A DNA stretch of 64,000 bases from NCBI RefSeq assembly GCF_003334255.1, contig NZ_QOWU01000001.1, one strand, 5' to 3'. The notes beneath the pieces are model-generated. The model saw only the letters and a program-made list of their open reading frames with translations. It was not told where the DNA came from and did no database searches. This document shows, in pieces, positions 11,057-11,185 of this stretch (its first letter is position 1; every line of letters starts with the position of its first letter). The translations under genes and the position numbers were made by a program. The stretch comes from Escherichia coli. GTDB lineage: Bacteria > Pseudomonadota > Gammaproteobacteria > Enterobacterales > Enterobacteriaceae.

Positions 11057-11100
11057 GTATTTCAGTCTCGATTAACAGATAACGCAAAATTGCTGTGTTC

Positions 11101-11130
11101 TTCAGATTCGTTTTATAGCCTGAAGTTCCG
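11101..11130 (-). promoter_or_regulatory. Candidate sigma-E promoter of degP
   Basis: On the minus strand, GGAACTT (plus 11123-11129) then a 16-nt spacer then TCTGA (plus 11102-11106), ~45 nt upstream of the degP ATG; matches the sigma-E -35/-10 consensus. Confidence 0.5.
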
Positions 11131-11185
11131 AACTAAAGTTTCTGCAAAAGGTAAAAATTTATTGTTCGTCTTTACAAAAGCCTGG

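Follow-up and report, generated by a model that had tools for sequence, protein, structure and literature searches.

The dgt-degP interval of an Escherichia coli strain: a canonical degP control region, identical to that of K-12, beside a probable dgt null allele

The control region of degP (htrA) in this strain of Escherichia coli is very probably the canonical one, unchanged from that of K-12, and it stands beside a probable dgt null allele that should have little effect on degP expression. As such it is ordinary and already known, and it involves no departure from known biology. The analysis described here showed the motifs to be present, identical to those of K-12 and conserved, found a match to an Rfam family, and defined the dgt deletion and its occurrence in other assemblies. 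The mapped transcription start, the curated CpxR boxes and membership in the sigma-E regulon are taken from the literature. Given that this control region is a founding example of sigma-E and Cpx regulation and is unaltered here, it carries little weight beyond correct annotation. The additions are modest: the degP 5' UTR can be annotated as an HtrA thermometer, the dgt deletion proves to be real and rare, and the lesion could affect at most a small share of degP transcription.

The DNA analysed, referred to as the window, is a stretch of 64,000 nucleotides of E. coli chromosome, the first 25 kb of which runs from pyrH to mrcB. Over those 25 kb, only three differences from strain G1/2 are present, namely SNPs at 7779 and 19657 and a deletion of 10 bp; the SNP at 7779 falls between yaeI and yaeH, and that at 19657 falls inside fhuB. 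Shigella was weighed as an alternative source and is not supported, given these few differences from an E. coli strain and the E. coli label that the truncated dgt product bears in NCBI. The 129 bp that separate the dgt stop codon (TAA, 11188..11186) from the degP ATG (11056) are precisely the interval 11057..11185. This spacer is 100% identical to that of K-12 MG1655, and of 5,426 complete E. coli genomes, 5,425 have it at no less than 95% identity and without change in length. Because the spacer is identical to that of K-12, experimental data from K-12 can be transferred directly, and a window position downstream of the deletion converts to K-12 as 191,940 minus that position. The features of the locus are collected in Table 1. 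At the far end of the gene, the primary 3' end of degP was placed by Term-seq (Adams 2021) at K-12 position 182,347, or approximately window position 9593, just past the degP stop codon, and its row is marked 'Yes' in the Rho table of that study.

Table 1. Features of the dgt-degP locus, in window coordinates.
Feature	Position	Strand	Basis or remark
degP coding sequence, intact, 474 aa	9632..11056	-	open reading frame; named serine endoprotease DegP in near-identical genomes
HtrA 5' UTR thermometer, fourU type (predicted)	11096..11051	-	Rfam RF02700; fourU 11089..11086, Shine-Dalgarno GAGA 11069..11066
Transcription start (+1), A	11096	-	sixth base past TCTGA; K-12 Cappable-seq start
Sigma-E -10, TCTGA	11106..11102	-	matches 3 of 5 positions of TCAAA; invariant in 13 sequences
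16-nt spacer, CAGGCTATAAAACGAA	11122..11107	-	length preferred by sigma-E promoters and invariant in 13 sequences
Sigma-E -35, GGAACTT	11129..11123	-	exact match to Rhodius 2006 consensus; unique in window
TTTAC, inverted GTAAA, candidate extra CpxR half-site	11155..11151	-	invariant in 13 sequences
CpxR box degP1, GTAAAGACGAACAAT	11175..11161	-	identical to curated site, PMC9600279 Table S1
CpxR box degP2, GTAAATTACCGTCAG	11325..11311	-	inside dgt 3' coding region; identical to curated site, PMC9600279 Table S1
dgt pseudogene, product 320 aa, premature TAA 11733..11731	11186..12693	-	alignment to intact dgt; junction 11851/11852
dgt mRNA untranslated after frameshift, 545 nt	11730..11186	-	translation of deletion allele
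Sigma-70-like GTGGCA-16-TATATT, weak	11874..11847	-	spans deletion junction; 9 of 12 consensus matches

A first-pass annotation of this DNA had read GGAACTT, a 16-nt spacer and TCTGA, on the minus strand about 45 nt before the degP ATG, as a sigma-E promoter, and both the positions and the reading hold. From the last base of TCTGA to the ATG there are 45 intervening nucleotides. The pattern GGAACTT-N15-17-TCTGA is unique in the 64 kb, occurring once when both strands are searched, compared to 0.01 matches expected from dinucleotide shuffles. In Rhodius 2006, the sigma-E consensus is given as GGAACTT for the -35 and TCAAA for the -10, with a 16-nt spacer strongly preferred, a discriminator of 5 or 6 nt and 26 or 27 nt separating the -35 from +1. 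In the present analysis, a geometry was accepted as that of sigma-E if the spacer measured 15-19 nt, the discriminator 5-6 nt and the stretch between the -35 and +1 25-28 nt. The degP promoter has the 5-nt discriminator AGAAC between TCTGA and A11096 and 26 nt between the -35 and +1, and it agrees with sigma-E promoters in its -35, in the type of its -10, in its geometry and in its mapped start.

That start was mapped in K-12 by Cappable-seq (Ettwiller 2016, supplementary file 1), as a plus-strand start at 180,844 with a score of 41.6. On identical sequence, K-12 position 180,844 corresponds to A11096 of the window, which is the predicted +1; the first-pass annotation had expected a start downstream of TCTGA, and its location favors the promoter. 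DegP is also listed in the core sigma-E regulon in Rhodius 2006, and control of DegP by sigma-E is described in a review as well. Conservation was assessed with 12 species-representative genomes, which were fetched via a 5' UTR anchor independent of the promoter and which comprise Escherichia albertii, E. whittamii, other Escherichia, six Citrobacter and Enterobacter asburiae. Among the 13 Escherichia, Citrobacter and Enterobacter sequences compared, GGAACT, TCTGA and the 16-nt spacing are fixed, whereas neighboring bases vary. GGAACTT-16-TCTGA is the classical degP (htrA) sigma-E promoter, already known, and sequence identity suggests that its dependence on sigma-E carries over from K-12 to this strain. 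TCTGA is the same -10 as that of the classical degP and rpoH P3 promoters, and the degP/htrA sigma-E promoter was reportedly first defined by Lipinska et al. in 1988 and by Erickson and Gross in 1989.

A TATAAA hexamer within the sigma-E spacer (11117..11112, minus strand) likewise shows no variation among the 13 enterobacterial sequences. An overlapping sigma-70 promoter might use it as a -10, as a counterpart of the start that produces a 47-nt leader in Salmonella; the K-12 Cappable-seq table has no start at the equivalent position.

Farther from the degP start codon, GTAAA and TTTAC had both been proposed as CpxR half-sites. The GTAAA, at 11175..11171, stands as the first half of box degP1, which together with degP2 is among the 41 known CpxR sites in Table S1 of PMC9600279. 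The TTTAC has no entry in that curated list, though it is invariant in the 13 sequences. By motif alone degP1 is weak, in that comparison to GTAAA-N5-GTAAA gives an exact first pentamer and a second pentamer, ACAAT, that matches at 2 of 5 positions; the GTAAAGA and the ACAAT of the box are nevertheless invariant in the 13 sequences. On the strand opposite to TTTAC, the sequence reads GTAAA-AATTT-ATTGT, with the central ACAAT/ATTGT common to this element and the degP1 box, and TTTAC is a possible inverted CpxR half-site. The degP2 box, which lies inside dgt and 255 nt before the degP ATG, did not appear in the first-pass annotation. Binding of CpxR to these boxes in this strain would be carried over from K-12, given the identity of the sites.

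The degP leader, which the first-pass annotation did not describe as a thermometer, matches the Rfam family RF02700 over the full model (1-46), with 77 bits compared to a gathering score of 52 and an E value of 4e-17. The match spans the 40-nt leader and the first six coding bases, and it begins exactly at the sigma-E +1. In the minimum-energy fold at 37 C, UUUUG is paired to CGAGA, the C at 11084 is bulged out and the loop measures 5 nt. An equivalent architecture has been described for the Salmonella htrA thermometer, where it was probed by SHAPE. By its covariance-model score the leader is a predicted member of RF02700, and thermometer function in E. coli may be inferred from sequence identity with the Salmonella system; no experiments on thermometer behavior of the E. 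coli leader were found in the literature.

The leader hairpin has no stability advantage over shuffled sequences (z = 0.94), although a marginal thermosensor might be expected to fold no better than shuffles. At 30 and 37 C it is the predicted minimum-energy structure, at 42-45 C it gives way, and at 20-25 C another fold outcompetes it, such that the temperature series is not cleanly monotonic. The predicted unpaired probability of the Shine-Dalgarno bases changes only gradually with temperature. ViennaRNA energies for the Rfam consensus structure were discarded, given that a non-standard A.C pair in the structure brought them below the minimum free energy.

On the other side of the spacer, dgt does lie directly upstream on the same strand and is frameshifted, as the first-pass annotation had stated, and the lesion is a 10-bp deletion. 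The ten bases AGAGAAAAGA (minus strand) are missing between 11851 and 11852, and the rest is identical over 1.8 kb to an intact dgt (505 aa, E. coli 300709). Translation of Dgt is normal for approximately 281 residues and then proceeds out of frame to the TAA at 11733..11731. Among 5,422 complete RefSeq E. coli genomes, a 120-bp junction probe did not detect the deletion once, with all matches in the 90-95% identity band, and a 35-mer across the junction had no match in GTDB species-representative genomes or in JGI metagenome contigs. The exact 320-aa product was found in NCBI by exact-protein look-up as CAM2788586.1 and CUJ86495.1, both from E. coli, and is present on 23 Logan assembly contigs. 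Three Logan contigs, each of a separate run, match the window at 100% identity over 2.6-5 kb, junction included; the runs with the allele include ERR9882047, ERR1948968 and SRR31312631. Because the same allele is present in Logan and NCBI records, the deletion is a real, rare and lineage-restricted allele rather than an assembly artifact.

The strain is probably Dgt-null. Deletion of dgt has been reported to have a spontaneous mutator effect and to raise dGTP approximately 2-fold, and the strain is possibly mildly mutator. The truncated Dgt belongs to a 90%-identity cluster of 369 members, many of which are short dgt products of E. coli and Shigella sonnei; one, of 286 aa, is encoded on a 5.04-Mb S. 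sonnei contig. This cluster suggests that truncation of dgt is recurrent, though many of its entries are contig-end partials.

Other readings of the locus concern either the promoter or the effect of the lesion. If the GGAACTT/TCTGA pair were a chance match, with degP driven from elsewhere, the shortness of the motifs would be the only feature in its favor; the random expectation of 0.01 matches, the mapping of the K-12 start to the predicted base and the invariance of the motifs across genera while flanking spacer bases vary effectively refute it, and it retains almost no probability. A second promoter could in principle arise from the deletion itself. In the intact allele the same -35, at the same spacing, is followed by TAGAGA, and the deletion replaces this with TATATT, a better -10, to give a sigma-70-like match across the junction at 9 of 12 positions. 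Comparable matches in the 2-kb region number 3, compared to 2.5 expected, which is not above chance, and a transcript from the junction would be untranslated for approximately 750 nt and thus exposed to Rho. That the deletion creates a new sigma-70 promoter that raises transcription toward degP is therefore considered highly improbable.

Several observations would allow for transcription from dgt into degP. A scan of the minus strand between the two genes found no intrinsic terminator-like site, and an intrinsic terminator after dgt was rejected, as there is no hairpin and the 3' end of dgt together with the spacer folds like shuffles (z = 0.12). In the available portion of the Adams 2021 Term-seq tables, dgt has no assigned 3' end, and the degP terminator at 182,347 is the sole entry that names either gene. 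Of the three start sites of Salmonella htrA, those that give 215- or 449-nt leaders lie inside dgt, so that transcription there crosses the dgt-degP spacer. The RNA left untranslated by the frameshift was searched for rut-like regions by C/G ratio in sliding 78-nt windows, a crude criterion without background calibration, and C exceeds G in two windows (11692..11615, C/G 1.4; 11393..11303, C/G 1.56 with 13-14 YC dimers). Rho-dependent polarity at dgt, which the first-pass annotation had raised, is plausible on this model. Read-through from wild-type dgt might then feed basal degP expression or disturb the degP promoter, and the frameshift, together with Rho, might measurably change degP regulation, either by Rho-dependent loss of read-through or by relief of transcriptional interference at the sigma-E/CpxR promoter. 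If this were true, the lineage would differ in its envelope-stress set-point and in control of its dNTP pool, given that the side-effect on degP might combine with the Dgt-null phenotype.

A measurable change of this kind is unlikely. The promoter starts of dgt in K-12 Cappable-seq, 179,217 and 179,231 (window positions 12713 and 12699), have scores of 6.3 and 4.3, compared to 41.6 for degP; therefore, any effect of polarity on degP is bounded and small. If read-through were complete and were then lost entirely, unstressed cells would lose only roughly one-fifth of the transcripts that reach degP, and cells with sigma-E or Cpx induced would lose less. The one-fifth is a ceiling, estimated roughly from 5'-end counts in a single K-12 culture condition, rather than a measurement of read-through. 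The frameshift does not affect the weak K-12 starts inside dgt at 180,283 and 180,669 (window positions 11657 and 11271), both of which are downstream of the lesion. The start at 11271 lies 215 nt before the degP ATG and has TATTAT ahead of it. A literature search, which included the supplements of SMRT-Cappable-seq, gave no report of co-transcription of dgt and degP or of Rho acting at their junction. Because the degP promoter is downstream of the exposed dgt RNA, polarity cannot silence degP.

The preferred reading remains a canonical degP control region next to a dgt null allele of little consequence for degP. In the mechanism proposed for it, sigma-E RNA polymerase would recognize GGAACTT-16 nt-TCTGA and initiate at A11096, and phosphorylated CpxR would bind the GTAAA-type boxes at 11175..11161 and, within dgt, at 11325..11311 to activate transcription. 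The 40-nt leader would act as a fourU thermometer, in which UUUU pairs with GAGA at low temperature and melts when warmer, to result in translational heat control. The 10-bp deletion would make dgt a null allele, such that ribosomes stop at 11733..11731 and leave 545 nt of dgt RNA naked. Rho may end transcripts from the dgt promoter ahead of degP, but with the much stronger promoter of degP itself, polarity should alter degP expression little.

The closest known system is the degP sigma-E promoter of K-12, which has the same whole spacer, -35, spacing, -10, mapped +1 and CpxR boxes. The K-12 region differs from this locus only in the upstream dgt, which carries the 10-bp deletion here, and the promoter itself shows no difference. 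The Salmonella htrA leader is likewise 40 nt long, with an ACAGCA start, pairing of the fourU with the Shine-Dalgarno sequence, a bulged C and a 5-nt loop. Unlike that of Salmonella htrA, the E. coli leader has an A.C mismatch at one position of the lower stem, where the Rfam consensus has an A-U pair. The weak K-12 start at 11271 is as far from the ATG, at 215 nt, as one of the long-leader starts of Salmonella htrA.

Rho-dependent nonsense polarity is classical in the lac, trp and gal operons. The dgt-degP locus resembles them in its premature stop, its long untranslated stretch of 545 nt, its candidate C-rich and G-poor windows and its co-oriented gene downstream. Unlike the downstream genes of those operons, degP is no operon partner of the interrupted gene, and a strong promoter of its own lies downstream of the exposed RNA.
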